The position numbers were made by a program, and so were the translations under genes. Source: a virus (Duplodnaviria > Caudoviricetes). Taken from it: DNA of 64,000 bases. Under the pieces are notes generated by a model. The model made no database searches, was not told the DNA's origin, and saw nothing but the letters and a program-made list of their open reading frames with translations. Location of the stretch: positions 6,898 to 70,897 of the IMG/VR virus record IMGVR_UViG_3300020238_000002. One strand, 5' to 3'. Positions 10,062 to 47,834 of this stretch are shown in pieces (positions within the stretch are counted from its first letter, which is position 1; each line of letters opens with the position of its first letter).

Positions 10062-10069
10062 TATAAATA
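10062..10069 (+). promoter_or_regulatory. Late promoter TATAAATA followed by hairpin GGGATG-CGACAA-CATCCC
   Basis: Exact match upstream of the NUMOD-like ORF and uvsW. Confidence 0.65.
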
Positions 10070-10130
10070 ACATTAAGAGGGATGCGACAACATCCCCCTC
10101 AACTAAACAATAATGTACTGGAGGTACACC

Positions 10131-15094: not shown

Positions 15095-15641
15095 CTCATG
15101 GGTATTCGACGGTGCGCTTAATAAAGGCATGTGTGAAGAACTAATTAAGATAGGAAATGCAGAAATTACTAAAGAGGCAACGGTTGATGGAGGTAAAAAA
15201 CCTGCAAAGAAAACACGTGTTTGTCAAGTAGCATGGTTAACCGATCCATGGATTATGGAAATGCTGATGAATTATGTAGATAATGCAAACTACCATGCCG
15301 GTTGGAATTTTGAAATCGAACGTCCAGTAATGATTCAATTTACTAAATATGAAGTAGGCGGTCACTATAATTGGCATCGTGATACGAATAGAGATTTAAG
15401 TAAGACAGGTGGTAAAACAAGAAAGATAAGTATTACCGTAAATCTAAATGATGACTATGAAGGTGGTGAATTAATGATTGATTCAGAAGATCATTATTGG
15501 AATAAAACACCACGGCAAGTACGTTCTGGATTAGGTAGTATAGCTGTATTTCCATCTGATACATATCATAGAGTAAAAAAAGTTACAAAGGGTACAAGAT
15601 ATAGTTTAGTTGTTTGGGTAATGGGAGAACCTTGGAAATGA
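15078..15641 (+). CDS. 2OG-Fe(II) oxygenase (prolyl-hydroxylase-like)
   Basis: HYNWHRD, RKISITV, YEGGEL, HRVKKVTKGTRYSLV. Confidence 0.9.
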   Translation: MRLKNNSWVFDGALNKGMCEELIKIGNAEITKEATVDGGKKPAKKTRVCQVAWLTDPWIMEMLMNYVDNANYHAGWNFEIERPVMIQFTKYEVGGHYNWHRDTNRDLSKTGGKTRKISITVNLNDDYEGGELMIDSEDHYWNKTPRQVRSGLGSIAVFPSDTYHRVKKVTKGTRYSLVVWVMGEPWK

Positions 15642-29233: not shown

Positions 29234-29878
29234 ATGAATTTAAATATTGAACATTATATCCATAAAGCAAAATGGATATCGGATGATCTTTGTGACGAAG
29301 TTAGAACACAACTCGATACTGAGAACACATGGAAACCATTTCCTCGTGATGTTGTAAATGCATATGAACAGAAAAGACCGAATGATGGTATTGTTGGATC
29401 AACATTAAGTATTGACTGGGAAGATTTTATGAATAACCCAGATGTTCCAAAGCAAGCAACAAATTATAGTTTATGCCATTTAGAAGATAAAGAAGCGATG
29501 AAAAAACTTCGTAGATCTATACAAGATGGGTTAGACAATTATGTACATGAGTATTTAAAAGATATACCATGGTATGATTACTATAGGGATTTTACTGATC
29601 CTAAGTTTATGAAATACGGTGAAGGTCATGATATGCAAGAACATTGCGATCATGTAAGATACGTATTTGACGGTAAAAGAAAAGGAATTCCAACAGTTTC
29701 TATTGTAGGCAGTTTAACTGGTGATTCCGAAGGTGGTTATGTAAGGTTTTGGGGTAATAAAGATTATTATGTAGGAAAAGGTGAATGTATGTATTTTCCT
29801 AGTAATTTTTTATATCCTCATAAAGTAACAGAAGTTACTAAAGGTTTAAGGTATTCTTTCGTAAGTTGGGTTTGGTAA
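29234..29878 (+). CDS. 2OG-Fe(II) oxygenase
   Basis: EHCDH, FPSNFLYPHKV, RYSFVSW. Confidence 0.85.
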   Translation: MNLNIEHYIHKAKWISDDLCDEVRTQLDTENTWKPFPRDVVNAYEQKRPNDGIVGSTLSIDWEDFMNNPDVPKQATNYSLCHLEDKEAMKKLRRSIQDGLDNYVHEYLKDIPWYDYYRDFTDPKFMKYGEGHDMQEHCDHVRYVFDGKRKGIPTVSIVGSLTGDSEGGYVRFWGNKDYYVGKGECMYFPSNFLYPHKVTEVTKGLRYSFVSWVW

Positions 29879-32559: not shown

Positions 32560-33219
32560 ATGAGCGCAGATTGGGTAAACGACATTAACAGAATGCAAAC
32601 AAAATATGGTGTCCGTGAATGGATAAAACATGCCACACCATTTGAACTTAAAAAATATTTAGAGTTTCGTTTAAACTTTATTAAAGAAGAGTATGACGAA
32701 ACATGTAAAGCACTTAGTGAAGAAGATAGTGAAGAGATCGTAGATGGTCTTATTGACTTATGTGTTGTAGCTATTGGTACATTAGATGCATTAGGTGTAA
32801 ATGTACACAAAGCTTGGAATGAAGTATATGAAGCCAACATGAATAAAGAAGTTGGTGTAAAAGAATCACGTCCAAATCCATTAGGCTTACCAGATCTAAT
32901 CAAGCCTGAAGGTTGGACAGCGCCAAGCCATGAGAAAAATCATGGTATTATTGGTAATGCATGGAGCGATGAAATTACTAAGAAAGCTATGGAAGCTAAT
33001 GCAGCAAGAACAGAGCTCATAGCAGATAATCCAGATGTCAATTCTAACTGGGCACCAGATGCAATATCTCGTATGGATATTATTGGTCAAAATGGTAATG
33101 ATGGTTTACATTATACACCAGGACCAGGACCATTAGATGGTACACAAGCAAAAATTAATTGGGAAAAAGACTCGGAGTATATAAGATTATATGGGACCCC
33201 CGAAGATCCAAAAATCTAA
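32560..33219 (+). CDS. MazG-like/PRA-PH all-alpha NTP pyrophosphohydrolase with C-terminal extension
   Basis: EEYDE...EIVDGLID (ExxE...ExxD), NMNK, LIKPEGW. Confidence 0.8.
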   Translation: MSADWVNDINRMQTKYGVREWIKHATPFELKKYLEFRLNFIKEEYDETCKALSEEDSEEIVDGLIDLCVVAIGTLDALGVNVHKAWNEVYEANMNKEVGVKESRPNPLGLPDLIKPEGWTAPSHEKNHGIIGNAWSDEITKKAMEANAARTELIADNPDVNSNWAPDAISRMDIIGQNGNDGLHYTPGPGPLDGTQAKINWEKDSEYIRLYGTPEDPKI

Positions 33220-33346
33220 AATAAACTACCGTACATGGTTAGTTTTATATAAAGGTAAAGATATCGATAAGATTACCTTGGAAGAGCATACTAAGTTTAG
33301 TAAAATGTATGCTGCATGGAAGGTAGGTAATATTGAGAAAGTATGA
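33191..33346 (+). CDS. Small hypothetical protein (51 aa, not in ORF track)
   Basis: Fills the gap exactly; its stop overlaps the next ATG (ATGA). Confidence 0.4.
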   Translation: MGPPKIQKSKINYRTWLVLYKGKDIDKITLEEHTKFSKMYAAWKVGNIEKV

Positions 33347-34269
33347 ATTATTCCCTTACATTATTTAAAAGCATATTCGATAACAAAACTGAAAAGCGTA
33401 TGAACTTTACTTCATACCATCAATTTGAGCGTTTGTTATTTGATCTAGCCCAGCAGAAGCGTGAAGATAAAAAGTCGGCTCCCCTTATTTCTCCTGCGAC
33501 ATACAAAGAGAATACGACTCGTGCAAATGATAATGTACTCGGTTGGGCTGGTTGGACGGCAGTAGATGTAGATGAACATGTATTCGATGGTAATCTTGAG
33601 CAAGAATTATTAGATCGATATGGAAAATGGAATCATGTTGTTTACTCTACTGCTTCATCCACTCGTGAACATCCTAAGTTTAGAATAGTATTTCCATTAA
33701 CAATCCATGTACCAAAGGAAAAGATTAAACACTTCTGGTTTGCATTAAATAAAGAGTTAGGTGATATTGGTGATCCTCAAACAAAGGATCTATCACGTAT
33801 GTATTATGTTCCAGGCAAATACAAAGATGCATACAATTTTATATACAATAATTTCAATGGTGTGGATATGAATCCATATGAGATTATGTCTAAACATGAC
33901 TATGTTGAAAGATCAGGTTCATTGATAGATAATTTGCCTAAAGAGATTCGTAAACAAGTACTCGCTCATCGTAAGAGTGAGATGACAAATACAAATGTGT
34001 CATGGAGTAATTACAGAGATTGTCCATTTGTAAATAAGAAGTTAGTGAAAGAGTATAATGAAATCACTGACACAGGATGGTATACAAAGATGTATTCCAT
34101 TATGGTTTCAATTGCAGGTAATGCTATACGTAAGAAGTATCCAATCACTGCACAAGAGATCACTACATTATGTAAGGAGATAGATTATGAGAACGGAAAC
34201 TGGTATAAATCAAGACCATTCGACAAGGAGGCAGACCGTGCCATTGAATTTGTATACGGAAACGTTTAA
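33343..34269 (+). CDS. Archaeo-eukaryotic primase (PrimPol-like) domain protein
   Basis: DVD catalytic motif; VVYSTASS...HPKFRIVFPL; DLSRMYYVP; helical C-terminal domain. Confidence 0.7.
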   Translation: MNYSLTLFKSIFDNKTEKRMNFTSYHQFERLLFDLAQQKREDKKSAPLISPATYKENTTRANDNVLGWAGWTAVDVDEHVFDGNLEQELLDRYGKWNHVVYSTASSTREHPKFRIVFPLTIHVPKEKIKHFWFALNKELGDIGDPQTKDLSRMYYVPGKYKDAYNFIYNNFNGVDMNPYEIMSKHDYVERSGSLIDNLPKEIRKQVLAHRKSEMTNTNVSWSNYRDCPFVNKKLVKEYNEITDTGWYTKMYSIMVSIAGNAIRKKYPITAQEITTLCKEIDYENGNWYKSRPFDKEADRAIEFVYGNV

Positions 34270-34669
34270 CCAAACGGACATCGATCCGAAAAGATTATAC
34301 GCTAGGGCCAAAGCTGAATCTGAAAAGATCACTTGGAATCCTAACAATAGAACACCTGAAAAGATATTAATGGATTGCATGATGGGTCAATGTGCAGAAT
34401 TATATCTCATAGACAAGTGTGGATACACAGATAATCCTAATGGATTTATGGATGTGTTTGATTTAGAAGGACGTGAGATCGAAGTAAAGGTTACACGTGG
34501 TGAACACAATATAAAGTTTATGTTAGGTGATTTATTAGTTCGTAAAATAGAATGGGGATACCATGTAGCTGATATAGTTTATTTTTATCTTTATGATCCA
34601 AAGTCAGGTGACTATACATTCTGTAGAGAATATAATTTTAATGGTACAGACTATGTACTTTCTAGTTAA
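34238..34669 (+). CDS. PD-(D/E)xK nuclease-like protein
   Basis: MDVF...EIEVK motif; AGGAGG RBS before GTG at 34238. Confidence 0.55.
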   Translation: MPLNLYTETFNQTDIDPKRLYARAKAESEKITWNPNNRTPEKILMDCMMGQCAELYLIDKCGYTDNPNGFMDVFDLEGREIEVKVTRGEHNIKFMLGDLLVRKIEWGYHVADIVYFYLYDPKSGDYTFCREYNFNGTDYVLSS

Positions 34670-34682
34670 ATCGTGTTATAAT
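34652..34682 (+). promoter_or_regulatory. TATGTAC-N18-TATAAT promoter of the DNA-modification operon
   Basis: Motif copy. Confidence 0.8.
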
Positions 34683-34708
34683 ATACACATATCAATCGAG
34701 GAGTAAAC

Positions 34709-35047
34709 ATGCAAAAAGAATCAATCATAGTTCTGCAAGAATGTGCAGAGCTTCAATCTAAAAAGTCAGAAGACTATCAAAATCCAAATTCACAAGTAAA
34801 ACAAGCAATGCATTATCGTCGTGGTGTAGATTCTATTCATGATACTATGCATGGCAAAATGCTTCGTGCTCAGTCTTTACTTGAATCCGGTCAAGCTAAC
34901 AACTTTGAATCACTTGAAGACACATACAAAGATCTTATTAACTATGCATCATTTGCTGTAGCTTATATTCGTGGCAAGATGGAAGGTCAAGATCCAAACT
35001 TAGATTACTTAAACAATCCTAAATCAAATGTTGATACGTCCATATAA
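34709..35047 (+). CDS. Nucleotide-modification-associated (Nmad1/DUF1599-like) all-alpha protein
   Basis: KKSEDY, KMLR, ESLEDTYKDLINYA pattern. Confidence 0.7.
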   Translation: MQKESIIVLQECAELQSKKSEDYQNPNSQVKQAMHYRRGVDSIHDTMHGKMLRAQSLLESGQANNFESLEDTYKDLINYASFAVAYIRGKMEGQDPNLDYLNNPKSNVDTSI

Positions 35048-35771
35048 AGTTGCCGACGTTCGTGACTACTTCATTGGTGCCAAGCAAGGTGGTGGTTATG
35101 GTCGGACTATAGATAAGACTGGCGTTCAATGTATCGAATTAATCGGTGCATCTTTTTTAGCAGATGAACCTGCTATATTTGGTGAACCTAATATAGAATA
35201 TATAAATGCAGAAATTAATTGGTATGAATCACAATCTCTAAATATTCACGATATATACGGTAAACATTCTGGTAAAAAACCACCAGCAGCATGGCAATAT
35301 GCAGCATCAGATCGTGGTTTTGTTCATTCAAATTATGGTTACTTAGTTGGCTCAGAAGAGAATGGTAGTCAATATGGAAATTGTTTAGCAGAATTAAAAG
35401 CTAATCCTAATTCACGTAGAGCTGTTATGATTTATCAAAGACCATCTATATGGTACGAATATAATCTTGATGGTGCTTCAGATTTTATATGTACTAATTC
35501 AGTAGCTTACTATATTCGAGATGGTAAATTACATTGTTCAGTTTCAATGAGATCTAACGATGTAGTGTATGGTTATAAAAATGATTATGCATGGCAACAA
35601 TACTTATTGCTTAATATGGCAAATGAACTTGAAGTAGTAGCAGGTAATATGATATGGCAAGTGCAAAACTTACATGTTTATGAAAAGCATTTTGACTTAA
35701 TCAAGCCAGCTCCATTACCCGAATCACCTACTAAATTATCAACTAACGCAAGTCATAAAAGTTATGCCTAA
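35028..35771 (+). CDS. gp42: dCMP hydroxymethylase (T4 gp42-like, thymidylate synthase fold)
   Basis: EINWY, SNYG, SRRAVMIYQRP, DFICTN (catalytic Cys). MRSNDVVYGYKNDYAWQ parallels T4 gp42 MRSNDVVFGFRNDYAWQ and retains the cytosine-specifying Asp. Confidence 0.88.
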   Translation: MLIRPYKVADVRDYFIGAKQGGGYGRTIDKTGVQCIELIGASFLADEPAIFGEPNIEYINAEINWYESQSLNIHDIYGKHSGKKPPAAWQYAASDRGFVHSNYGYLVGSEENGSQYGNCLAELKANPNSRRAVMIYQRPSIWYEYNLDGASDFICTNSVAYYIRDGKLHCSVSMRSNDVVYGYKNDYAWQQYLLLNMANELEVVAGNMIWQVQNLHVYEKHFDLIKPAPLPESPTKLSTNASHKSYA

Positions 35772-36801
35772 GAAGTGGTTAAATGAGGAAGCACTTGATG
35801 TGCTAGTTAATTATTATTATCCAAGAGCTGGATGGCTTCAGGATAATGTCAATTGGGGTCCATTAGATTACGAAGGACCAGAAGCCAATAAAGAAATTAA
35901 TGATCCTCTTATGCAGAAGATTGATATTTATGATTGTAAGACAAGGAATGCCGCTGGCTTTTCAAATGTATTACAAGATTTATTTCTTGGTTCAAAGACT
36001 CCTAAATGGAGATGGCAAAACGAAAGACGTAGAGAGATTAACACATGGAATGATCAGATCACATGGGGTTTATCTGCACAGTTTTTTGTTATGATGTGTC
36101 ATCGTATTACAGGTTCTGGTGCATCATTTGAGAATGACCATGGATATCGTAATAATATTATACAATATTGGGGTACACAGTTTGCTAAGGATGGCATAAA
36201 AGAAATGTGTGAAGATCTAATAAAGCGTAAAGAGGAAGGACCAATCTTTACTTCTATTGGTAACCAGCCACCTGCTCCAAAGAAGGGCACAACAAATGTA
36301 GACTTCATGACAAAAGAATTACCGCCATTAATATTTAAATTTGTTGATTGGTTATTATATGAAAAGATAGATGGTAGAGAAATGAAAACCCATAAGGAAA
36401 TTGTTGACTATTTAAATGCATATAATAAATCTGCTGGTCATAGAAAGTTTAATTTTCAATATGCAGCATTCTCTATGGACTGTTCAGATTATTTTCCTAC
36501 AGCAGTAGATCCAGATTCACACACATACTTGGGTAACAATGCTGTTCGTTGTATGCAGAAGCTATCATCAGGATATAAGCCAGATGAGTTTATGGATATA
36601 TTAAGAGAACGTACAGGTGGAAAACCAAAAGATCTTGAAGATGTTATGTGTGACTTTGTAAGATTTGGTCAAAATTATGTACCAAGAGGTAACGGCACAT
36701 TTGACCATATTCCTAGTACTATAACTAATAACAGCGGATGGGTATCTGGTTGGAAGCAAAGACAAGGTACACCACCGAATAATAATACACTACCAATATG
36801 A
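35764..36801 (+). CDS. aGPT-Pplase-like (5-hm-pyrimidine DNA kinase / amino acid:DNA transferase superfamily) helical protein
   Basis: FQYAAFSMD, YLGNNAVRCM and DLEDVMCDFVRF resemble the family's C-terminal motifs; gene context. Confidence 0.6.
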   Translation: MPKKWLNEEALDVLVNYYYPRAGWLQDNVNWGPLDYEGPEANKEINDPLMQKIDIYDCKTRNAAGFSNVLQDLFLGSKTPKWRWQNERRREINTWNDQITWGLSAQFFVMMCHRITGSGASFENDHGYRNNIIQYWGTQFAKDGIKEMCEDLIKRKEEGPIFTSIGNQPPAPKKGTTNVDFMTKELPPLIFKFVDWLLYEKIDGREMKTHKEIVDYLNAYNKSAGHRKFNFQYAAFSMDCSDYFPTAVDPDSHTYLGNNAVRCMQKLSSGYKPDEFMDILRERTGGKPKDLEDVMCDFVRFGQNYVPRGNGTFDHIPSTITNNSGWVSGWKQRQGTPPNNNTLPI

Positions 36802-37682
36802 GTCACAACAAACATGTAGAAGACGGATTCAATATAGATATCGGGATGATGCAACCCGAAGAAGCAAAAGAATATTACTTAGATCTTGCTCAGTTTTGGA
36901 CTGATCCTAATCCAGCTCCACGTATTGTTGAGCATGAAGGTATTCGAGTTGTAAGAGATGATGACTTAGTTGGATCTAAAGTTCGTGGTGGAGATTGTCT
37001 TATTAGTTCTCTTCCACGTCATATCGACACAATAGTTTATGTTCAACCAAGAACTGGTTTAGCTGGTGTAAGTATATTAGATGTAGCAAAGAGACATAAT
37101 AAATCTGTAAGATTATTTATGCCATCATCTAAAAAGATCTCACATCACCAAGCTTGTTGTATAGAGCAAGGTGCAGAGGTTAGCTTTCATAGAATTGCTG
37201 CCATGCCTAATCTAAATAAGATAGCAAAGGAATGGGCTGATAAAAAAGAAAATGCATTCTTTGTACCGTTAGGATTAAAACATAGAATGGTCACAGCAGG
37301 AATTGTAAAGGTTGCAAGTCAAATAAAAGAACCTGAGCAAGTATGGGTTGCTACATCAACTGGTGTATTGACTCGTGGATTGCAGATAGCTTGGCCAAAT
37401 GCAGAGTTTGTTTCTGTGGCTGTAAGTAGAAACATGAAGGCTGGTGAATTAGGTAGAGCAAGAGTAATATCTGCACCTGAGCCATTTACTAAAGGATGCA
37501 AACCTGAAGATCTGCCACCGTTTCCGTGTATAGACACCTATGACGGAAAAGTCTGGCGTTACATTCCTAAGAATACTGGTAAAGATATTCTATTTTGGAA
37601 TGTCGGAGCTCAACCGATTTTACAAGATGAGACGCTATATGAAACAACTGATAGCTATAGAAAATGGGATAAAGACTTATGA
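36798..37682 (+). CDS. PLP-dependent enzyme, fold type II (DNA-hypermodification-associated)
   Basis: VVRDDDLVGSKVR (Schiff-base Lys), VATSTGVL phosphate loop, DTYDGKVW, ILFWNVG. Confidence 0.8.
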   Translation: MSHNKHVEDGFNIDIGMMQPEEAKEYYLDLAQFWTDPNPAPRIVEHEGIRVVRDDDLVGSKVRGGDCLISSLPRHIDTIVYVQPRTGLAGVSILDVAKRHNKSVRLFMPSSKKISHHQACCIEQGAEVSFHRIAAMPNLNKIAKEWADKKENAFFVPLGLKHRMVTAGIVKVASQIKEPEQVWVATSTGVLTRGLQIAWPNAEFVSVAVSRNMKAGELGRARVISAPEPFTKGCKPEDLPPFPCIDTYDGKVWRYIPKNTGKDILFWNVGAQPILQDETLYETTDSYRKWDKDL

Positions 37683-38611
37683 TTACAGGAACATTTAATA
37701 AAATACCACGTAAGAAAAACAGCCATGGATATGGTTGGGCAAGAACATGGGCAGAGAACTTAAATGTAGGTATTAACCATGATGCTCATCCAACCGAGGT
37801 ATTATACTTAGACCACGGGGTAAACTTTGGTGGTGGTCTGAATCTATTCGGTGGGTTTAACGAAGAACTTAAACAACGTATAGATAATTTCTTAGCAGCA
37901 AACGAAGTTTTTTCACTTGACATGGATATGCCAGAGTATGGTAATATGTTAGCTAAGAGAAAAGATGTTAAAGATAAAGAATGGTGTAAACGTGTTCAAG
38001 CTAAATGCGATAGTGCAAAAACATTATTGTCTACAGATCTTGACACTACTTGGTTGACAATTGGTGATTCTCATACGGCAGCATTCGCTGCACCAGGAAG
38101 TATGGTCATTAAGACAAACGGTCTTACACTCAATGGACAACTACGTTCTAACTTTCAATATGTGAGAGATCATATATGGAAATGTAACAACCTACAAGGT
38201 ATCACATTAAGCTTTGGTAATATAGATGTAAGACATCACCTTTGCAGATTAGGTATTGATCCAAGAGATATGTGGATTGACTTAAAAAGATTTGGTGATA
38301 GCTTACCATTTCCAGTAGAATATTCTGTACCATGGCCTATAGAGTTTGAAGACAGAAGATTACCAAAGACTGGTTATTATAAGAACCAACCATTTTGGGG
38401 TACACGCTTTGAAAGAACACAAATGCTTGAAAGAATTATTGAGACCATGGATATGGTAAGCATGAATAAAGTTATGTATCCACAAGAGTGGTTAACCATG
38501 GATCCTGAAGTATTTGCTAAAACAAAAATGGAAGGCACTAGTTCAGTACATATATCACCTGAAGTATATAGGCGAAAAGATTTTGGTGAGCAGTATGTAC
38601 TTCCAATATAA
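37679..38611 (+). CDS. Protein with C-terminal SGNH/GDSL-like domain; N-terminus weakly resembles T4 beta-glucosyltransferase N-domain
   Basis: TIGDSH, SFGNIDVR, SSVH; N-terminal LNLFGG. Confidence 0.5.
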   Translation: MITGTFNKIPRKKNSHGYGWARTWAENLNVGINHDAHPTEVLYLDHGVNFGGGLNLFGGFNEELKQRIDNFLAANEVFSLDMDMPEYGNMLAKRKDVKDKEWCKRVQAKCDSAKTLLSTDLDTTWLTIGDSHTAAFAAPGSMVIKTNGLTLNGQLRSNFQYVRDHIWKCNNLQGITLSFGNIDVRHHLCRLGIDPRDMWIDLKRFGDSLPFPVEYSVPWPIEFEDRRLPKTGYYKNQPFWGTRFERTQMLERIIETMDMVSMNKVMYPQEWLTMDPEVFAKTKMEGTSSVHISPEVYRRKDFGEQYVLPI

Positions 38612-38623
38612 CTGTGATATAAT
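38594..38623 (+). promoter_or_regulatory. TATGTAC-N17-TATAAT promoter upstream of uvsX
   Basis: Motif copy. Confidence 0.8.
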
Positions 38624-38657
38624 ATACATATCAATTAATTATTAGAGGAGAAAAAAT

Positions 38658-39710
38658 ATGGGCATAATGGATAAGCTCGCGAAGAACTCTCGTATCAAAG
38701 AGTCTTCACAACTAGACAAAAGTAAATTGTTTAGTAATAAGGATATGGTGACTACACCTGTTCCTATGATTAACGTTGCGTTATCAGGCGATCCAAGCGG
38801 AGGTCTGACATCTGGACTAACAGTACTGGCAGGACCAAGTAAGCATTTCAAAACTAGTTTTGGACTACTCATGGCTGCAGCATACTTAGATAAGTATGAA
38901 GATGCTGTTTTGTTATTCTATGATTCAGAGTTTGGTAGCCCGCAACAATATTTTAAGTCGTTCGGTATTGATACTTCCCGCGTACTACATAGTCCCATTA
39001 CTAATGTAGAAGAGCTGAAATTCGATTTGATATCCCAGCTTGAGAATATTGAACGCACCGACAAAGTGATTATTATGATTGACTCTGTCGGAAATCTTGC
39101 TTCGAAGAAGGAGCTTGAAGATGCTATGAATGAAAAGTCAGTAGCAGATATGTCGAGAGCGAAAGCCCTCAAAGGTCTATTTAGAATGACAACACCCTAC
39201 CTAACAATGAGAGATATTCCATTGATAGCAGTCAACCACACATATCAAGAAATCGGCTTATTCCCTAAAGCAGTCGTGTCCGGTGGTACAGGTATTTACT
39301 ACTCCTCAGATAATATCTGGATCATCGGCCGTCAGCAAGAGAAAAAGGGAACTGAAATTACAGGATATAACTTTGTCATTAATGTAGAAAAATCAAGGTT
39401 TGTCCGTGAGAAGTCTAAGATTCCTATCTCAGTTACATGGGAAGGTGGTATTGAAACATATTCTGGATTATTAGAAGTAGCAATAGAAGGTGGATATGTA
39501 GTTAAACCTCAAAATGGTTGGTACTCAAAGGTTGACCGATCTACTGGAGAAGTAGAAGATAAAAAGGTTAGACTTGCCCAAACATTGGAAAAAGATTTTT
39601 GGACAGATATTTTTGCAAAGACAGATTTCGAAGATTATATTAAGAACAAATATGAAGTCGGTCATGCTGATATGATTAAACAAGATAACCCTGAAGATAT
39701 GGATATTTAA
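38658..39710 (+). CDS. uvsX: RecA-like recombinase UvsX
   Basis: AGPSKHFKT, FYDSEFG, DSVGNLASKKE, SGGTG. Confidence 0.97.
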   Translation: MGIMDKLAKNSRIKESSQLDKSKLFSNKDMVTTPVPMINVALSGDPSGGLTSGLTVLAGPSKHFKTSFGLLMAAAYLDKYEDAVLLFYDSEFGSPQQYFKSFGIDTSRVLHSPITNVEELKFDLISQLENIERTDKVIIMIDSVGNLASKKELEDAMNEKSVADMSRAKALKGLFRMTTPYLTMRDIPLIAVNHTYQEIGLFPKAVVSGGTGIYYSSDNIWIIGRQQEKKGTEITGYNFVINVEKSRFVREKSKIPISVTWEGGIETYSGLLEVAIEGGYVVKPQNGWYSKVDRSTGEVEDKKVRLAQTLEKDFWTDIFAKTDFEDYIKNKYEVGHADMIKQDNPEDMDI

Positions 39711-41056
39711 TGCAGATAGAAACATTAATCTTACGAAACTTAATGCTCAATGAGGATTATACCAGAACGGTTATTCCTCATTTGAAAACTATATACTTTG
39801 AAGATCCACACAGATCAGTATTTAATGAGATTGTTGGGTTTGTCAATAAGTTTAATAAGTTGCCAAGTGCTGATGCTTTAACTATTGAGTTAAAGAATAA
39901 TCCTAAGATCACATCAGATTCTCTTGCACTTATACCTGAATTGAGTAAACAGGATACAGAACAAACTATCGAATGGTTAGTTGAAAAGACTGAGAAGTGG
40001 TGTCAAGACCGAGCAATCTATTTGGCAATCATGGATTCTATTAATATTATTGAAGGTAAGCATGATACATTAGATAAGAATGCATTGCCTACCGTATTAG
40101 CAGAAGCTTTAGGTGTTAACTTTGACATGAGGGTTGGACATGATTATGTTGATGACTCTGATAATCGTTATGATTTCTATCATAGGCAAGAAGAACACCT
40201 ACCATTTGACTTAGAAAAGTTTAACACAATCACTAAAGGTGGTCTCGTCAAGAAATCTCTTAATGTTGCTTTGGCTGGTACAGGTGTAGGTAAGTCTTTA
40301 TTCATGTGTCATGTTGCAGCTGGTGCCCTAACACAAATGAAAAATGTGTTATATATAACTATGGAGATGGCAGAAGAAAGGATAGCAGAACGTATTGATG
40401 CTAACCTTATGAATGTGCCTATTGACCAGTTAGAGAATCTATCGAAAGATATGTTTGATAAGAAGATGCATAAGCTTACTGACAAAGGTGTTGGTAAACT
40501 TATTGTGAAAGAATATCCTACAGGAGCTGCAAGTTCTATTCACTTTAGGGCATTACTAAAAGAATTAAAGATCAAACGTGACTTCACACCTGATCTTATT
40601 TGTATAGACTATCTAAATATATGTGCCTCATCAAGAATGAAATCTATGGGTGGTGCAATTAACTCATATATTATGGTCAAAGCAATTGCAGAAGAATTGC
40701 GTGGCTTAGCAGTAGAGTATAACTTACCTATTGTTACGGCCACACAAACTACTCGTTCAGGTTTTGCATCATCTGATGTAGGACTAGAAGATACAAGTGA
40801 ATCATTTGGTTTGCCTGCTACGGCAGATCTTATGTTTGCACTTATATCTACAGAAGAGTTAGAAAACCTTAACCAAATAATGGTTAAACAATTAAAGAAT
40901 AGGTATAATGATCCTACAGGTGGAAACAAGAAGTTTGTACTTGGAATTGACAGAGCCAAGATGAGACTGTACGATGTAGAAGATACAGCACAAACTCTGA
41001 ATGTAAGGGATGAGCCACCTAAAAAAGTAAATCAATTTGAGGATTTTGACGTATGA
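39710..41056 (+). CDS. gp41: Replicative DnaB-like helicase (T4 gp41)
   Basis: AGTGVGKS, IDYLNIC, TATQTTR, SESFGLPATAD, KQLKNRY. Confidence 0.97.
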   Translation: MQIETLILRNLMLNEDYTRTVIPHLKTIYFEDPHRSVFNEIVGFVNKFNKLPSADALTIELKNNPKITSDSLALIPELSKQDTEQTIEWLVEKTEKWCQDRAIYLAIMDSINIIEGKHDTLDKNALPTVLAEALGVNFDMRVGHDYVDDSDNRYDFYHRQEEHLPFDLEKFNTITKGGLVKKSLNVALAGTGVGKSLFMCHVAAGALTQMKNVLYITMEMAEERIAERIDANLMNVPIDQLENLSKDMFDKKMHKLTDKGVGKLIVKEYPTGAASSIHFRALLKELKIKRDFTPDLICIDYLNICASSRMKSMGGAINSYIMVKAIAEELRGLAVEYNLPIVTATQTTRSGFASSDVGLEDTSESFGLPATADLMFALISTEELENLNQIMVKQLKNRYNDPTGGNKKFVLGIDRAKMRLYDVEDTAQTLNVRDEPPKKVNQFEDFDV

Positions 41057-41520
41057 GTACTTTATTAACAGGCCAAGGATGGGGAAGGAAATATACCAGC
41101 CTAGCCAAAGAAATATCTACATGGTCTAAGGACCCAAGCACACAAGTTGGTGCAGTTGTTATAGGTGAAAAAGGCCAATTATTATCACAAGGTTATAATG
41201 GGTTTCCACGAGGCATTAATGATACTGATGATAGACTAAATAATCGTGAAAGAAAGTATGAATTAGTTGTACATGCAGAGATGAATGCTATATATAATGC
41301 TAGTTTTAATGGAGTTTCTTTAAAGGATTCTACATTATACGTGTATGGTTTACCTATTTGTAGTGAATGTGCGAAAGGTATTATTCAAGTTGGTATAAAA
41401 AAGGTTGTTGCTACGAGACCTAGAATATATAATTCCGATTGGGATAAATCAACAAAGGCTGCTGAGGCTTTATTTAGAGAAGCTGAAGTAATGTATTTAA
41501 TCGACGTGGAGGAAGAATGA
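41053..41520 (+). CDS. cd: dCMP deaminase
   Basis: WSKDPSTQVGA, GYNGFP, HAEMNA, PICSEC. Confidence 0.93.
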   Translation: MSTLLTGQGWGRKYTSLAKEISTWSKDPSTQVGAVVIGEKGQLLSQGYNGFPRGINDTDDRLNNRERKYELVVHAEMNAIYNASFNGVSLKDSTLYVYGLPICSECAKGIIQVGIKKVVATRPRIYNSDWDKSTKAAEALFREAEVMYLIDVEEE

Positions 41521-42755: not shown

Positions 42756-43044
42756 AGAAGCACCATTCAAAAAATGGACATTCGTAGATAAGAATGATTT
42801 AGATAATGAACATTGGTATGTACGATTAGATGGTGGAAAATACCATGATGTAATTTACAGATATATGAAAGTATCATTAAATATGGATACTCAATCTATA
42901 AATTTTGATTACGAAGTGGTAGAATATCCAAGTATGGATGATCCACATGGGGAACCTGAGTTTACTCAAGCTGCAGGTGATATTTTAAAAAGTATATTAG
43001 ATGATGCGATGGAAAAGCAGGACTATGTACTAGGTGAAAAGTAA
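42748..43044 (+). CDS. Conserved T4-like hypothetical protein
   Basis: GKYHDVIYRY...FDYEV...GDILKSIL; ATG at 42748. Confidence 0.6.
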   Translation: MNKEAPFKKWTFVDKNDLDNEHWYVRLDGGKYHDVIYRYMKVSLNMDTQSINFDYEVVEYPSMDDPHGEPEFTQAAGDILKSILDDAMEKQDYVLGEK

Positions 43045-43316
43045 TGAACGTAAAAGAAACACTGACCATTCTCTCAGAAGAATGCGCAGAAGTAATACAA
43101 GCTAACTCAAAATTAATTAGATTTGGCCCATATGATGAAGATAATGTGGCTGAATTAGAACAGGAACTCGGTGATATAATGGCCATGATACTCGTACTTG
43201 ATTATTATGGCTATGTTTCAACAGAAAATATCACAAAGAATGTAGAACCAAAGCTAAAAAAGCTTAAAAAGTACAGCAAAATTAAGAATTTAAATAAAAT
43301 TATAAAGAATTTGTAA
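43044..43316 (+). CDS. MazG-like nucleotide pyrophosphohydrolase
   Basis: LSEECAEVIQA...LEQELGDIMA. Confidence 0.75.
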   Translation: MNVKETLTILSEECAEVIQANSKLIRFGPYDEDNVAELEQELGDIMAMILVLDYYGYVSTENITKNVEPKLKKLKKYSKIKNLNKIIKNL

Positions 43317-43358: not shown

Positions 43359-44045
43359 ATGCAGTCACTTAAAGGTTATCTATCCGAAGGTCGTCACGAT
43401 CCTTCAATATTCAAGGCAGTTTTTATGGCAGGTGCTCCAGGCGCAGGCAAAAGCTTTGTCTCTGATTGGATGTCTTTAGGTCCCCAACTTGGTTACAAGG
43501 TAATCAATTCAGACATGGAATTCGAACGTTACATGAAGGAAGCAGGATTAACTGATGATAAAGGTGCAGTTATCCTTGATCCTTCAAAAGAGTTTGAACG
43601 TGGTGTAATACGTACAGTAGCAAAAAGACACACAGCAGCTAAACAAAGACATGCCATGATCGGCAGATTAGGTCTTGTTATTGACGGTACAGGAGCAAAC
43701 GCTTCTAAAGTAGAAAAACAAAAGAAAACATTAGAAGCACTTGGTTATGAAACAGCCATGGTGTATGTTAGTATTCCTTTAGAAGATTCAATTGAATCAG
43801 ATAGAAAACGTGGCGAAGCAGGAGATAGATCAATTGGACCAGAGCTTGTTACCCAAAAATTCCAAGAATTAGATAAGAGTTTACCTAAATTAAAAAGGGC
43901 ATTTGGCAGAATGTTTTTCGAGATAGATAACACAGTAAGAGAAAAAACACCAACAATAATTCGTGGTGTATATAATCAAATTGCTAAATGGTCTAAGAAA
44001 TTACCAACAAACAGAGCAGCTAAAACTTGGATAAAGAATAACTAA
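43359..44045 (+). CDS. P-loop kinase (zeta-toxin/AAA_33-like)
   Basis: GAPGAGKS, INSD, LVIDGTG, LGYETAMVYV. Confidence 0.8.
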   Translation: MQSLKGYLSEGRHDPSIFKAVFMAGAPGAGKSFVSDWMSLGPQLGYKVINSDMEFERYMKEAGLTDDKGAVILDPSKEFERGVIRTVAKRHTAAKQRHAMIGRLGLVIDGTGANASKVEKQKKTLEALGYETAMVYVSIPLEDSIESDRKRGEAGDRSIGPELVTQKFQELDKSLPKLKRAFGRMFFEIDNTVREKTPTIIRGVYNQIAKWSKKLPTNRAAKTWIKNN

Positions 44046-44286: not shown

Positions 44287-44631
44287 ATGAAAACCTATAA
44301 ACAAGTAGAAGCAATTGACCATATATGTGAGCAACAATACCAAGATGAGGTAATAAGCGAAGCAGAGTATCAAGGCAAAACAGTTACATTAAATAATCCT
44401 ACACGTTCACCTAAAGGAAGTAAGCATAAATTTCATGTATATGTAAAGAATGATAAAGGTAATGTTGTAAAGGTTACATTCGGTGATCCTAATATGGAAA
44501 TTAAGAGAGATGATCCTGCAAGACGTAAATCATTTCGTGCAAGACATAATTGTGATCAGAAAAAAGATAAAACTAAAGCAGGATATTGGTCGTGTTACCA
44601 ATGGAGAGCTGGAGCAAAGGTAGATAATTAA
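44287..44631 (+). CDS. Conserved basic phage protein, putative capsid-internal
   Basis: EAEYQGKTV, VTFGDP, RRKSFRARHNC, AGYWSC. Confidence 0.7.
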   Translation: MKTYKQVEAIDHICEQQYQDEVISEAEYQGKTVTLNNPTRSPKGSKHKFHVYVKNDKGNVVKVTFGDPNMEIKRDDPARRKSFRARHNCDQKKDKTKAGYWSCYQWRAGAKVDN

Positions 44632-45989
44632 TGTTAAATTTTAAAGAGCAAGTAACAGAATCAACACAAATGCGTTTAGTCGATCTTCTTCCGAAGAAGG
44701 TGAAGCGTATGATATACAGAGTTGCACATCAAGACAAGTATAAAGGTGCTTTGCTTATGATGAAAGCATTAAGAAAAGATCCTGATGTAATCTCAAGAGG
44801 CTTGAGCAAACAAAAGATTCAGGCTATTGCTGCAGATCATTTTGGTTTAAACCATCGTGAGTTTGCAAGAGTACTTGATCGTAAGACAAGATACGAAGAG
44901 AAAACTCCTACTAGACCACAAGAAGATGATTCAGGTTGGGTAGAAGAGTATATCACAGAAGCTCGTACTGATACAACACTAAATGCATCTATTACAGAAT
45001 TATTTCCTGCTCTTGCTTTTAATAACAAATCAAAACCTGTAAGTGTAGAAGCTTTTAAAAAGTTTGTATATAAACTAAATTTAGATAGAGACAGAAAATC
45101 ATTTATGCCAGCTGATAAAGAAGCGGCAAAACTCGTTATAGAAAAAATACCTAGTATGGAAGAAAGATTTTCTAAAGATAAAATAGAAAATGCCATAGGA
45201 ATTACTAATTATTTGTATGAGTTACACGATACAAAACCTATTAGTCATGTTGTGTGGGGATACCGTGCAAAACCAAGAGGAATACCAAAGAATCATGCAG
45301 GTGATATATTTGTATTCTTTCGTGATAAATCAGTTATTGGAGTATCACTTAAAGCTGGATCTGCTAAATCGAGAGAGCCATTGTTAAATACTTATGTAGG
45401 AACACAATACAAAAAACGTGGTTGGGATACTACTGAATTGCAAAATACTTTATGGGATAGAGTATATTCGCAAGTTCCTGGTGTAACTGATATAGCAACA
45501 AAAACAAATTATATGGACAAGAAGGTTAAACCAGAAGTTGTCCGTAAATATATAGAGATGTTCCTTTTAGATCAAAAAGCAGCAGATGTATTATATCATG
45601 AACAGACTAAAGTTTGTAGACAACAGTTATGTAAAGAAATTAATAAAATGTCTACCGCTGATTTTATTCAATGGTTAGGTGAAGACTTTAATTTAGAAAA
45701 GAAAGGTGAGAAAGTACCACTAATATTAGTCAAAGCTGTTGGCACAACCGCAACTCGTAAAGGAGATGATTTAGCTCCTGTATACAAAACAATCACAGAT
45801 CATAAAGCTTATTTAGATAAAAATTCAGTCCAAGCATGGATGATTGACGTATATTTACCTGAAGGTAAAATGACATTAGATATGGTTTGTAGATCTGACT
45901 CGGGTGTTCGTGCTGAAAAGGGAGTAACTGGCCAGGGTAGATTAGGTAAATTTATGATGTTAAAAGTTTTATATAAAGGAATACTATGA
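44631..45989 (+). CDS. Two-domain protein with C-terminal PD-(D/E)xK-like nuclease fold
   Basis: AGDIFV...GVSLK; N-terminus MLNFKEQVTE; internal YITEA. Confidence 0.55.
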   Translation: MLNFKEQVTESTQMRLVDLLPKKVKRMIYRVAHQDKYKGALLMMKALRKDPDVISRGLSKQKIQAIAADHFGLNHREFARVLDRKTRYEEKTPTRPQEDDSGWVEEYITEARTDTTLNASITELFPALAFNNKSKPVSVEAFKKFVYKLNLDRDRKSFMPADKEAAKLVIEKIPSMEERFSKDKIENAIGITNYLYELHDTKPISHVVWGYRAKPRGIPKNHAGDIFVFFRDKSVIGVSLKAGSAKSREPLLNTYVGTQYKKRGWDTTELQNTLWDRVYSQVPGVTDIATKTNYMDKKVKPEVVRKYIEMFLLDQKAADVLYHEQTKVCRQQLCKEINKMSTADFIQWLGEDFNLEKKGEKVPLILVKAVGTTATRKGDDLAPVYKTITDHKAYLDKNSVQAWMIDVYLPEGKMTLDMVCRSDSGVRAEKGVTGQGRLGKFMMLKVLYKGIL

Positions 45990-47215
45990 ATCTAAAGCAA
46001 CACATAGCAGAAGCAAAGAATACTCACATGACTCATATTGAGGACATGGTGATTGACGGTGGTGTAGCTGGAGCACGATCAGCTATCTTTGCATTAAGAG
46101 ATTTAAGAGACATGTTGGCTGGTCATACAAATGACACTAAACAAGTCACAGTTAAATGGGATGGCGCACCAGCAGTATTTGCTGGTATTGATCCATCTGA
46201 CGGTAAGTTCTTTGTAGCAAAGAAAGGAATATTTAATAAGAATCCTAAAGTATATAAATCAGTAAAGGATGTAAAAGCTGATACATCTGGTGATTTAGCA
46301 AAGAAGCTTACAGTAGCATTTCAAGAATTAAGTAAACTTGGTATAAAGAAAGGAGTCTACCAAGGTGACATTATGTTCACAAAACAAGACTTAAAGAAAG
46401 CAACAATTGATGGGAAGAAGTATGTAACCTTCCACCCAAATACTATAGTATATGCAGTACCCGTTGAAGCAGCGCAAGAGATTATGAGAGCTAAAATTGG
46501 AGTAGTGTGGCATACTTATTACTCAGGCTCAACCTTTGAAACAATGAATGCTTCATTTGGTGTATCCACTGCAGCGTTTAAAAATGTCCGAACGGTATGG
46601 CAGAAGTCCGCCAACCTACCAGACATATCTGGTTTAGCCACATTAACCAAAAAGGAAACAGATGAAATTACCAAGCATATCTCGAACGCAGGAAAGCTCT
46701 TTCAAAAAATCGCCGCTACGACGCTTAATGACGTGGCTTCAAATAAAGATATTAACCTCTTTATCAATACCTTTCGCAATACGAAGGTTAGAGCGCAAGA
46801 GGAAGTTACAGACTCCAAAGCCTATGTTGAAGAACTTATCGGATGGATCGAGAATCGTTATAACACCGAAAAAGAAAGGCTTAAGAGCGATGCTGGGAAG
46901 GATAGGAAGGAACAAGCGAAGCTGGCAGCCTTAGAATTCTTCTCAGATGAGAACAGAGATGGTCTTATAAGTATGTTTGATATGCAAAACGAGCTAGTAT
47001 CTGCTAAGATAAAGCTATTAAAGCATCTGGACAGTATGGATAGTATAAATACATTTATAAAGACTAAAGACGGGTTTAGAGTAACAGGCGCCGAGGGATA
47101 TGTTGCTATAGACCATTTAACAAACGGTGCTGTTAAAATTGTGGATAGAATGGAATTTTCTTACAACAACTTTAGCAAAGACATAATCAAGGGATGGGAG
47201 TCCGAATCACGATGA
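45986..47215 (+). CDS. DUF6267-like protein with ATP-dependent ligase-type nucleotidyltransferase motifs
   Basis: TVKWDG (KxDG), YQGD, EGYV, VKIVDR; N-terminus MNLKQHIAEA. Confidence 0.65.
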   Translation: MNLKQHIAEAKNTHMTHIEDMVIDGGVAGARSAIFALRDLRDMLAGHTNDTKQVTVKWDGAPAVFAGIDPSDGKFFVAKKGIFNKNPKVYKSVKDVKADTSGDLAKKLTVAFQELSKLGIKKGVYQGDIMFTKQDLKKATIDGKKYVTFHPNTIVYAVPVEAAQEIMRAKIGVVWHTYYSGSTFETMNASFGVSTAAFKNVRTVWQKSANLPDISGLATLTKKETDEITKHISNAGKLFQKIAATTLNDVASNKDINLFINTFRNTKVRAQEEVTDSKAYVEELIGWIENRYNTEKERLKSDAGKDRKEQAKLAALEFFSDENRDGLISMFDMQNELVSAKIKLLKHLDSMDSINTFIKTKDGFRVTGAEGYVAIDHLTNGAVKIVDRMEFSYNNFSKDIIKGWESESR

Positions 47216-47520
47216 AATTAATAGACAAATTAGTACAATCATATACTGAACCAACAATAAGAGAAAACAGTATGGCAGCACGTAGAGCTGGAGCAAAAAG
47301 AGTTCATCATTCAGATAAAGCTCTTGAGAAGGATCAAATAGCTTTAATCGATTATCTATGGAAAAATCCAGACTTTCAAGCTCAAGCAGTAAAAAAAGGT
47401 TATAATAGGGATGATATCTACTTTGATGATAACGAACTTGTCTTTGGTTCTAAAACAGGAATGAGAGTTGGTAAGAATGATAAAGTTTCTGATATAATTA
47501 GAAAAGTTAAAGTAAAATAG
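47212..47520 (+). CDS. Hypothetical protein
   Basis: ATGA overlap with the previous stop. Confidence 0.55.
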   Translation: MKLIDKLVQSYTEPTIRENSMAARRAGAKRVHHSDKALEKDQIALIDYLWKNPDFQAQAVKKGYNRDDIYFDDNELVFGSKTGMRVGKNDKVSDIIRKVKVK

Positions 47521-47527
47521 GAGAATA

Positions 47528-47827
47528 ATGTCAAACATTCAAATAATACAATGTCAAAAAGCTTCAGGAAGCTTTGATACTGTAGATGCAGCAATGGCTC
47601 AACATTGTACTGACTGCACAGCGCTTACATCTGTATCAGATTATAAAGCGTGGGTAGGACAGCAACTTTTTTCTGAATCCTATGCGTTAATGGCTGATAA
47701 TAGCGGCTATAATATTACGCGAACTTGGGAAACCACAGAAGCAAAAGAGACTGGAGAAGCTGGATCAGCCCCAGATAATGATAGAGCCCAATTAAGTGTT
47801 AACGGCTGGACTTGTAAACTAATATAA
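47528..47827 (+). CDS. Hypothetical protein
   Basis: AGGAG RBS. Confidence 0.55.
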   Translation: MSNIQIIQCQKASGSFDTVDAAMAQHCTDCTALTSVSDYKAWVGQQLFSESYALMADNSGYNITRTWETTEAKETGEAGSAPDNDRAQLSVNGWTCKLI

Positions 47828-47834
47828 GGGTCAT

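Follow-up and report, generated by a model that had tools for sequence, protein, structure and literature searches.

The gene set considered here comprises five overlapping open reading frames (ORFs A to E) in a 64,000-nucleotide (nt) stretch of DNA from the IMG/VR virus record IMGVR_UViG_3300020238_000002 (positions 6,898 to 70,897 of that record), the whole of which is called the window below. These genes probably turn 5-hydroxymethylcytosine (5hmC) in phage DNA into a more elaborate, so far undescribed base. The evidence consists of the family or fold of each of the five proteins, the specificity residues of B, a deoxycytidine monophosphate (dCMP) hydroxymethylase of the T4 type, the linkage of the genes in related viral loci and the natural fusion of two of them, together with the finding that the canonical P-loop DNA kinase of the thymidine pathways was not detected in the six records searched.

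The source record comprises 70,897 bases, with a completeness estimated at 39%. Scans of the window ORFs against PHROG profiles (10 ORFs at an E-value ≤ 0.001, 36 and 39 ORFs at ≤ 1e-5) identified a T4-like myovirus with sheath, tube, portal, major head protein, UvsY, a UvsW-type helicase, gp55, gp46/47, gp45, gp44/62, RegA, gp43, UvsX, gp41, gp32, gp59 and NrdAB. The major capsid protein showed just 52-53% identity to those of Methylophilales phage Melnitz and Pelagibacter phage HTVC008M, which therefore indicates an uncultured marine lineage. A megablast search of the module region against 50,697 phage records gave no match.

The dCMP hydroxymethylase and the linkage of the module genes

The product of ORF B matched T4 gp42 (PDB 1b49) over residues 27-225 (E-value 7.5e-68) and Pfam PF00303 (Thymidylat_synt; E-value 1e-18, 67.9 bits with a cut-off of 24.3), and showed 50-54% identity to dCMP hydroxymethylases from T-even phages and from phages of Klebsiella and Citrobacter. 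The identity to Mosigvirus homologs was 38% over just 46% of the length of B, a gap which matters because RB69-type enzymes, according to Lee et al. (2026, PMC13326640), yield 5-hydroxy-dCMP and not 5-hydroxymethyl-dCMP (5hm-dCMP). The same paper names as diagnostic the ThyA positions C146, N177 (Asp for dCMP), L143 (Asp or Glu for a non-methyl product) and D169 (Asn for hydroxylation), and reports that an acidic residue at the L143 position admits water, giving a hydroxymethyl rather than a methyl group. The residues of B corresponding to C146, L143, D169 and N177, counted along the alignment with T4 gp42, are C155, D152, D178 and D186. The catalytic C155, in DFICTN, aligns with C148 of T4 (DFMCTN), the acidic D152 with T4 D145, and the dCMP-specificity residue D186, in KNDYAWQ, with T4 D179; the Asp at the D169 position is kept in B (RSND), where the Mosigvirus OLB35 homolog has RSQN.

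The motifs DFICTN and MRSNDVVYGYKNDYAWQ, which a first reading made from the sequence only (the sequence-only reading) had pointed out, are both present in B, and the T4 chain (PDB 1b49) shows MRSNDVVFGFRNDYAWQ at the place aligned to MRSNDVVYGYKNDYAWQ. In related loci DF.C, RSND and ND were kept in all 56 B segments covering the site and RSNN occurred in none, while in a second, more distant set of loci MRSND...ND was found in 21 of 21 B homologs. The match to gp42 and the specificity residues support the proposal of a dCMP-specific, hydroxymethylating thymidylate synthase homolog, and B is very probably a 5hm-dCMP synthase, as judged from these sequence features.

The five overlapping ORFs claimed by the sequence-only reading are present, all on the + strand, with consecutive overlaps A/B, B/C, C/D and D/E of 20, 8, 4 and 4 nt. 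The gene order of the window is 43 - ... - A - 42 (B) - C - D - E - uvsX - 41, and that of T4, for comparison, 43 - imm - 42 - beta-gt - segA - uvsX - 40 - 41. Since C, D and E are situated between gene 42 and uvsX, which is the place of beta-gt in T4, they lie in the glucosyltransferase slot, and this position bears out the suggestion that they stand in lieu of the T4 glucosyltransferase.

ORF C matched 153 viral-contig stretches, and a first set of 80 IMG/VR loci with a C homolog was compared. D and E were present in all 34 loci with at least 3 kilobases (kb) on both sides of C, and B in all 30 C loci with room for it. Three gene orders were observed in this set, C-D-E (23 loci), E-D-C (41 loci) and D-E-C (one locus); the E-D-C loci read B - dCMP deaminase - E - D - C and are called type 2 here, the other main type being type 1. 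The second set was obtained with an alignment of seven E-C fusion proteins as the query, which gave 298 more viral stretches, of which 80 were kept; it contained a fourth order, E-C-D(-B), in 11 loci and a fused E-C gene in one locus. Conservation in related loci indicates that the cluster is more than a chance arrangement, and the functional linkage of B, C, D and E that had been proposed is sustained by their co-occurrence through four gene orders with a dCMP-type hydroxymethylase alongside. In metagenomes, homologs of C formed 324 clusters (143 representatives at 50% clustering), those of E 443 clusters, and those of D gave 1922 cluster representatives, nearly all of the representatives for the three proteins being marine-metagenomic.

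The helical, PLP-dependent and SGNH-fold proteins

The family assignments of the sequence-only reading held for all five proteins, A and B by Pfam, C by structure only, D by phrog_7093 and E by its SGNH fold. For C there was no Pfam match at an E-value ≤ 10 and no PHROG match, sequence and profile searches of the PDB gave nothing useful (one chance-level match), and tblastn against the 50,697 phage records found none. The AlphaFold (AF2) model, built on a 20-sequence alignment, is all-helical with a predicted local distance difference test score (pLDDT) of 84. A Foldseek search with this model against BFVD gave as the top three neighbours proteins of uncultured phages (E-values 6e-14 to 6e-12, template modelling (TM) scores 0.69-0.77), and one of these three was labelled 'Amino acid:DNA transferase domain-containing' (E-value 1.2e-12, TM 0.77). 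Weaker neighbours were Pplase1 proteins, the SP10 5-hydroxymethyldeoxyuridine (5-hmdU) DNA kinase (637 amino acids, aa) and HMUDK_hel proteins of PhiW-14 and others. The best structural neighbours in the PDB were AGOG helix-hairpin-helix glycosylases, with weak E-values of 0.1-0.6, and in the protein atlas HMUDK_hel was carried by 13% of the members neighbouring C. The fold of aGPT-Pplase or helix-hairpin-helix type that had been expected at 35764-36801 is thus found in the model (TM up to 0.77).

Residues E292, C296 and D297 are conserved at 90% or more over 30 C sequences, down to 20% identity. The motif D-L-E-D-V-M-C-D-F of C resembles D-I-E-H-T-L-C-E-F of M6 gp55 and E-V-E-T-V-L-C of M6 gp51, the Glu-x3-Cys spacing being common to the three proteins; for M6 gp51 and ViI gp247 an essential Cys with a Glu nearby was reported, along with a covalent C6 mechanism (Lee et al. 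2021, PMC8989533). C is regarded as a third clade of the aGPT-Pplase/AADT/HMUDK_hel superfamily, marginally nearer to the gp55 (kinase-associated) type, and may be a base-flipping C5 transferase. The sequence-only reading had left the choice between the kinase and transferase clades undecided; C matches neither Pfam model, and the profiles place it slightly nearer to the kinase-associated helical clade. The same reading had pooled the kinase with the aGPT-Pplase proteins, which was a mistake, the 5-hmdU DNA kinase being a separate P-loop protein (PF18748).

ORF D, proposed to encode a fold-II-type pyridoxal phosphate (PLP) enzyme, was more specifically placed in the family of M6 gp52. It matched phrog_7093 with an E-value of 1.6e-36, covering positions 7-279 of the 279 in the profile, and the same PHROG takes in M6 gp52 over its full length (E-value 2.2e-159). 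In an hhalign comparison, a 14-sequence D profile matched M6 gp52 with a probability of 91.9% (E-value 7e-7, 207 columns). Lys61 of D, in GSKVRGG, is invariant in the 14 sequences and aligns with Lys36 of gp52, and a C-terminal motif, PFP..YD.K.W...FWN.G, is common to both proteins. According to Lee et al. (2021, PMC8989533), Lys36 is the proposed PLP lysine of gp52, which decarboxylates a glycine adduct on DNA. Lys61 is likely to be the Schiff-base lysine of D, to judge from this alignment. Many close homologs of D carry a precomputed PF00291 annotation.

A D-like PLP domain was also observed in gp1 of Erythrobacter phage vB_EliS_R6L (L002:4858-7278), which combines a ParB-like domain with a DNA methyltransferase. 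The D-like domain, with the Lys motif kept, sits between the SAM-binding and SPPY-type motifs, as seen by eye, and gp1 is a further DNA-directed context for such a domain.

The protein encoded by ORF E (AF2 model with a pLDDT of 85) consists of a conserved N-terminal domain (residues 1-120) and a domain spanning residues 122-310, over which the suggested SGNH-like fold was recognised. Foldseek related this second domain with a probability of 1.0 to GDSL esterases and acyltransferases (TM, normalised to the target, 0.49-0.62), and VIA-align gave Z scores of 8.4-11.6 to SGNH/GDSL-type entries; all 50 rows listed by VIA-align were GDSL/SGNH-type esterases, acyltransferases or SGNH-like domains, wherever a title was given. 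Ser131 (GDSH), Asn181 (GNID) and His291 are invariant in 20 sequences; the usual Asp of the D-x-x-H block is not conserved, and the SGNH blocks were assigned by eye. There was no Pfam match at an E-value ≤ 10, SGNH and GDSL profiles included, and among the protein-atlas neighbours Lipase_GDSL was carried by just 10-21% of the members. A pattern for the His block of E, found in 17 of the 80 loci of the second set, was too narrow and was not used.

Natural E-C fusions of 639-790 aa, with an E-like SGNH part at the N-terminus and a C-like helical part at the C-terminus, were found as seven metagenomic cluster representatives (P0271, P0273, P0275, P0296, P0306, P0329 and P0350), and a fused gene was located at L177:2367-4736. 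No viral loci were found for the single fusion proteins P0273 and P0329.

The upstream region and candidate accessory genes

The sequence-only reading had placed one promoter at 34652, which was not borne out. A promoter consensus scan listed no site in the 39-nt gap ahead of A, and the region 33300-39800 contained 26 promoter-like sites compared with 29.7 (standard deviation 4.9) in shuffled sequences, which is below the shuffle mean and no excess. Within the gap, TGtTATAAT occurs at 34673-34681 and GAGGAG precedes the ATG, and read-through transcription is equally possible because the upstream genes are co-directional.

ORF A matched Pfam PF07659 (DUF1599/Nmad1; E-value 3.5e-7, 30.9 bits with a cut-off of 25) as well as phrog_1485 and phrog_18404 ('hydrolase'), the N-terminal half of phrog_18404 matching the MazG-like ORF at 32560-33219; sequence and profile searches of the PDB with A gave nothing useful. 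A homolog of A lies directly upstream of B in type-1 relatives. In relatives with the order B - dCMP deaminase - E - D - C, the place of A, abutting B upstream, is held by a gene with PF18909, the dATP/dGTP-diphosphohydrolase N-terminal domain (L036:2740-3057). The presence of a PF18909 gene at this position suggests that A is a nucleotide pyrophosphatase, and A may serve as a nucleotide-pool helper, possibly as a dCTP pyrophosphatase. A 96-aa ORF after B in locus L170 was considered as Nmad1-like and dropped; with A as the query, phmmer found no match among the second-set ORFs.

The window holds two MazG/PRA-PH-type pyrophosphohydrolase genes (32560-33219 and 43044-43316), the first of which is found at the same position, between gene 43 and the module, in relatives too. 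At 33343-34669 a primase-like ORF (phrog_9765) overlaps by 83 nt a 160-aa ORF of no known family, and type-1 relatives retain both of them upstream of A.

The P-loop 5-hmdU DNA kinase (PF18748) was found in none of six records, those of the window and of five relatives, all of which are 30-86% complete, two of them 77% and 86%; the pathway therefore cannot simply copy the thymidine one. A candidate accessory kinase of the Zeta_toxin/AAA_33 type is present downstream of the module, and in locus L082 a homolog stands immediately upstream of D-E-C (L082:3358-4068); in a search of the five related records, made without a positive control, the Zeta-type kinase gave no match. The other neighbours in L082, FecR and a CHASE2-cyclase, look bacterial. 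No glucosyltransferase family was recognised among the 85 window ORFs scanned against PHROGs, in agreement with the earlier remark that the window holds no complete glucosyltransferase. The window does contain a gene resembling UDP-glucose dehydrogenase and a short-chain dehydrogenase/reductase (SDR) gene, 20 kb from the module, and a subset of the relatives has homologs of the two immediately between C and uvsX (L029:7027-8774). The coordinates of the features are collected in the table.

Features of the module and of its surroundings in the window
Feature	Position	Strand	Length	Remarks
SDR epimerase/dehydratase	13386-14312	+		Pfam match; candidate accessory gene
UDP-glucose/GDP-mannose-dehydrogenase-like gene, truncated	14309-15094	+		Pfam match; candidate accessory gene
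Possible extended -10 and ribosome-binding site before ORF A	34673-34703	+		TGtTATAAT (34673-34681), GAGGAG; read from the sequence
ORF A	34709-35047	+	112 aa	Nmad1/DUF1599 domain
ORF B	35028-35771	+	247 aa	T4-type dCMP hydroxymethylase (very probable 5hm-dCMP synthase)
ORF C	35764-36801	+	345 aa	New clade of the aGPT-Pplase/AADT/HMUDK_hel helical superfamily; Glu292-x3-Cys296
ORF D	36798-37682	+	294 aa	PLP-dependent, phage M6 gp52 family (phrog_7093); Lys61
ORF E	37679-38611	+	310 aa	N-terminal domain (1-120) and SGNH-fold domain (122-310)
uvsX	38658-39710			Directly after ORF E
Gene 41	39710-41056			Follows uvsX
dCMP deaminase	41053-41520	+		phrog_174, E-value 3.8e-38; 2.4 kb after E; inside the module of type-2 relatives
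Candidate accessory P-loop kinase, Zeta_toxin/AAA_33 type	43359-44045	+		Pfam E-value 2.4e-13; link to the module weak

Further genes were noted in the window and around the module in its relatives. Two 2-oxoglutarate-Fe(II) oxygenase genes (phrog_61) lie at 15078-15641 and 29234-29878 of the window, and the interval 44631-48659 holds a phrog_2496 gene (452 aa), a DUF6267 gene (409 aa) and a cytidylyltransferase-like gene, phrog_455 spanning a DUF6267-cytidylyltransferase fusion. In some type-1 relatives a 319-aa ORF is inserted between C and D (L013:7050-8009, L019-L023), and in L057 it lies between B and E; the ORF of L013 had no Pfam, PHROG or PDB match. Type-2 relatives (L029:504-3096, 9827-10954) carry around the module a gene resembling phosphoenolpyruvate carboxykinase, a cupin and two small cytidylyltransferase-like genes, and a P-loop gene resembling adenosine phosphosulfate (APS) kinase stands between uvsX and gene 41.

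Proposed pathway and its place among known systems

It is proposed that the module carries out a post-replicative, kinase-independent hypermodification of DNA bases starting from 5hmC, and this scheme of B, E, C and D, taken as a whole, has in our estimation an even chance of being correct. B would convert dCMP to 5hm-dCMP before replication, like T4 gp42, and the phage DNA would carry 5hmC, while the nucleotide pools would probably be shaped by A together with the MazG-like and dCMP deaminase genes close by. E, C and D would act after replication on 5hmC in the DNA polymer, in the stead of the T4 glucosyltransferase; here we infer DNA as the substrate, the order of the steps, the chemistry of E and the nature of the adduct. 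E would activate the 5-CH2-OH group as a leaving group, most simply by O-acylation through an acyl-enzyme involving Ser131 and His291, trimming of the adduct being an alternative role. The job of the kinase is assigned to E because no P-loop DNA kinase accompanies the module and E is fused to C elsewhere. C would flip the base, with Cys296 attacking C6 and Glu292 acting as the acid, expel the group carried by the 5-methylene and add a nucleophile, by analogy with the amino acid:DNA transferases of M6 and ViI acting on 5-hmdU. D would process an alpha-amino-acid adduct, most likely by decarboxylation, to leave an aminoalkyl-type group on cytosine, an amino-acid-derived adduct, as in the sequence-only reading, being plausible; the acylation which that reading also envisaged is hypothetical.

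A number of observations weigh against this scheme. The phage is uncultured, and the pathway is predicted from its genes. PF18724 (AADT) and PF18723 (HMUDK_hel) were matched neither by C at an E-value ≤ 10 nor by its relatives (none of 20 close and 38 distant ones, the latter at ≤ 0.01), and PF18723 had no match in the record of the window itself; as controls, the M6 proteins were recovered by their models, gp51 as AADT (E-value 1.4e-46), gp55 as HMUDK_hel (8e-56) and gp54 as PF18748 (7.7e-18). PF18748 likewise had no match in C or in these 58 relatives. In hhalign comparisons a 30-sequence C alignment scored weakly against both 18 gp55-type sequences (E-value 0.002, probability 14%, 162 columns) and 18 gp51-type sequences (E-value 0.07), the yardstick being an E-value of 0.03 for the gp51-type and gp55-type clades compared with each other by the same method. 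A narrower C alignment gave nothing significant against single M6 gp51 or gp55, and broadening it bettered only the gp55 comparison. The suggested equivalence of Cys and Glu is drawn from a short motif and a low-probability alignment. Since C is nearer to the gp55 clade, and the gp55-type protein was reported to be dispensable for in vitro transfer in M6 (Lee et al. 2021, PMC8989533), C may not be a transferase. D remained below the Pfam PALP cut-off (25 bits compared with 35) and had no PDB match by sequence or profile. In the second locus set, B was followed by E with no detectable C or D in 11 loci, and E stood alone within 7 kb in 57 of the 80. We know of no SGNH enzyme that acts on DNA bases, and no literature joining SGNH proteins, hydroxymethylcytosine and phage was found. 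The record of the window being 39% complete, a kinase or a glycosyltransferase could lie elsewhere in the genome, and a different adduct is suggested by the sugar-nucleotide genes that many relatives have next to C.

Some of these points would fit an arrangement in which E is the main catalyst and C merely a DNA-binding, base-presenting partner, as HMUDK_hel is for the P-loop kinase. The product would then be an ester of 5hmC, for example O-acyl- or O-aminoacyl-5hmC, the amino-acid part of which D, where present, would remodel. C is slightly nearer to the kinase-associated than to the transferase helical clade, with HMUDK_hel on 13% of its atlas neighbours; the E-C fusions mirror the kinase-helical fusions, the 637-aa SP10 kinase matching the C model; and E is the protein most widely linked to the dCMP hydroxymethylase, even where C and D are lacking. 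ORF233c of Aeromonas phage 44RR2.8t joins an E-like domain to a C-terminal region with a weak HMUDK_hel match. However, the retention of Glu-x3-Cys at 90% or more across the C family suggests catalysis beyond binding, ester bonds to a benzylic-type alcohol would be labile on DNA, and SGNH transferases normally need an acyl donor partner, none of which was identified. This explanation is given a minor but appreciable weight. It is improbable, though still to be reckoned with, that the adduct is a sugar, uronic acid, pentose or polyol, E and C attaching a hydroxyl nucleophile provided by accessory enzymes and D being otherwise employed. The UDP-glucose-dehydrogenase-like and SDR genes between C and uvsX in a subset of relatives, the small nucleotidyltransferase and P-loop kinase genes nearby in relatives, the window homologs at 13386-15094 and the UDP-sugar synthesis genes reported to accompany cytosine arabinosylation in RB69 and DLP3 (PMC13326640) speak for such an adduct; but in many relatives uvsX follows C directly with no sugar genes, the sugar genes of the window are 20 kb off and no glycosyltransferase family was detected in it, and D is a specific relative of an amino-acid-adduct decarboxylase.

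A thymine-derived base would result if dCMP deaminase turned 5hm-dCMP into 5hm-dUMP and E, C and D acted on 5-hydroxymethyluracil (5hmU) in DNA. In type-2 loci the deaminase gene does follow B immediately, and in the window it lies 2.4 kb beyond E, but dCMP deaminase is a common gene of T4-like phages, where it normally feeds the synthesis of dTMP. The dCMP-specific Asp is moreover present in all 77 associated thymidylate synthase homologs, and the known 5hmU systems use dUMP hydroxymethylases together with the P-loop kinase, which was not found in the six records, so that this route appears quite improbable even though the characterised AADT and gp52-type enzymes are all described as acting on 5hmU derivatives (PMC8989533). 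Finally, PALP and SGNH are broad metabolic families, and the interval between gene 42 and uvsX is variable in T4-like genomes, T4 itself having a homing endonuclease there; C, D and E might thus be auxiliary metabolic genes for amino acids, the cell envelope or small molecules, set in a variable part of the replication module and with no part in DNA modification. Such a role is very hard to credit in view of the strict association with a dCMP hydroxymethylase, kept up in four gene orders, the nature of the sole structural relatives of C, which are DNA-base-modifying or DNA-glycosylase folds, and the action on DNA of the nearest characterised relative of D.

The module resembles the pathways of M6 and ViI but differs from them in that the base is cytosine, the P-loop kinase gives way to an SGNH protein and the helical protein belongs to another clade. 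Thymidine hypermodification in M6, ViI, PaMx11 and PhiW-14 is described as employing a dUMP hydroxymethylase, a P-loop 5-hmdU DNA kinase, an AADT (aGPT-Pplase2) and a PLP decarboxylase (Lee et al. 2021, PMC8989533). Common to these pathways and to the window are a hydroxymethyl pyrimidine made before replication by a thymidylate synthase homolog, a helical protein of the aGPT-Pplase superfamily with Glu-x3-Cys, a PLP enzyme in the PHROG of gp52 and fusions among the pathway enzymes. In contrast, the hydroxymethylase of the window is dCMP-specific, whence a cytosine base, PF18748 was not found in the six records, an SGNH protein is the constant partner, and C, unlike M6 gp51 and gp55, matches neither Pfam AADT nor HMUDK_hel. 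The published amino-acid- or polyamine-type pathways of pyrimidine hypermodification that were found start from 5hmU and need a P-loop DNA kinase (including PMC8989533), and the derivatives of 5hmC and 5-hydroxycytosine described for T4-like phages are sugars (PMC13326640, PMC2993671). The MetaGPA paper (PMC8670742) makes no mention of DUF1599, Nmad, Pplase, PALP, pyridoxal or GDSL. A literature search for a dCMP hydroxymethylase joined to aGPT-Pplase-like, gp52-like and SGNH genes found none. The work of Iyer et al. of 2013, which reportedly defined the aGPT-Pplase and Nmad domains, may bear on priority. If the proposed scheme is true, a cytosine version with an SGNH partner would bring both a DNA base and an activation chemistry acting on DNA that are new.

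With the T4 system of gp42 and beta-glucosyltransferase the module shares a hydroxymethylase 50-54% identical to the T-even gp42 homologs and the order 43...42-[modifier]-uvsX-41. Unlike T4, whose DNA contains glucosyl-5hmC, the window has C, D and E in the modifier slot, and no glucosyltransferase was detected in it. RB69 and DLP3, which contain arabosyl-5-hydroxycytosine (PMC13326640), are likewise T4-like phages with a gene-42-like thymidylate synthase homolog and offer a case of non-glucose hypermodification of cytosine, and sugar-nucleotide genes occur in some relatives of the window. Their enzymes are reported to have Asn at the ThyA D169 position and to make 5-hydroxy-dCMP, whereas B and all 77 relatives carry Asp.

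A counterpart in a cultured phage is ORF233c of Aeromonas phage 44RR2.8t (L001:5992-8379), a hypothetical protein of 795 aa (phrog_17781). Its N-terminal 330 residues are E-like (30% identity to E and 33% to the E part of the fusion P0329), its C-terminal region has a weak HMUDK_hel match (E-value 0.0036) and an E-x3-C motif, and the gp42 homolog of the same phage is 50% identical to B. Unlike the genes of the window, ORF233c is fused, with a helical part highly divergent from C (no tblastn match), and has another genomic location, adjacent to a solute symporter; a search of 44RR2.8t with the D profile gave no match. An ORF of 487 aa, situated three genes beyond E in L170, one of the loci where B is followed by E, shows homology to the C-terminal part of ORF233c (E-value 3e-27). 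Between E and this ORF (L170:8140-9725) stand ORFs of 395 and 131 aa, which by eye resemble inositol-phosphate synthase and a phosphatase of the haloacid dehalogenase (HAD) type. L170 and ORF233c together indicate that distant T4-like lineages repeatedly combine an SGNH protein and a helical Glu-x3-Cys protein next to a dCMP-type hydroxymethylase, with D added to this pair in some of them.

It is tempting to speculate that a widespread, kinase-independent rewriting of 5hmC exists, in which the SGNH activator E, paired with or fused to the Glu-x3-Cys transferase C, is combined with swappable accessory genes that set the adduct, such as the gp52-type PLP enzyme, sugar-nucleotide enzymes and others; we hold this wider reading tentatively, at somewhat short of even. 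If it is true, T4-like phages that abound in the sea would possess a family of cytosine bases yet to be described. DNA of this kind would be resistant to restriction enzymes and may distort the sequencing, amplification and abundance estimates of marine viromes, and 5hmC could be addressed site-selectively with the enzymes as chemical tools. Petrov et al. (2010, PMC2993671) describe 44RR as having no glucosyltransferase genes, and their account left open the fate of hydroxymethyl-dCMP in phages of this kind, which carry gene 42 and are glucosyltransferase-less. The wider reading, if true, would account for the fate of 5hmC in phages 44RR, 31 and 25 of Aeromonas, and this question, open since 2010, can be approached by experiment through the E-helical fusion of cultured Aeromonas phages.

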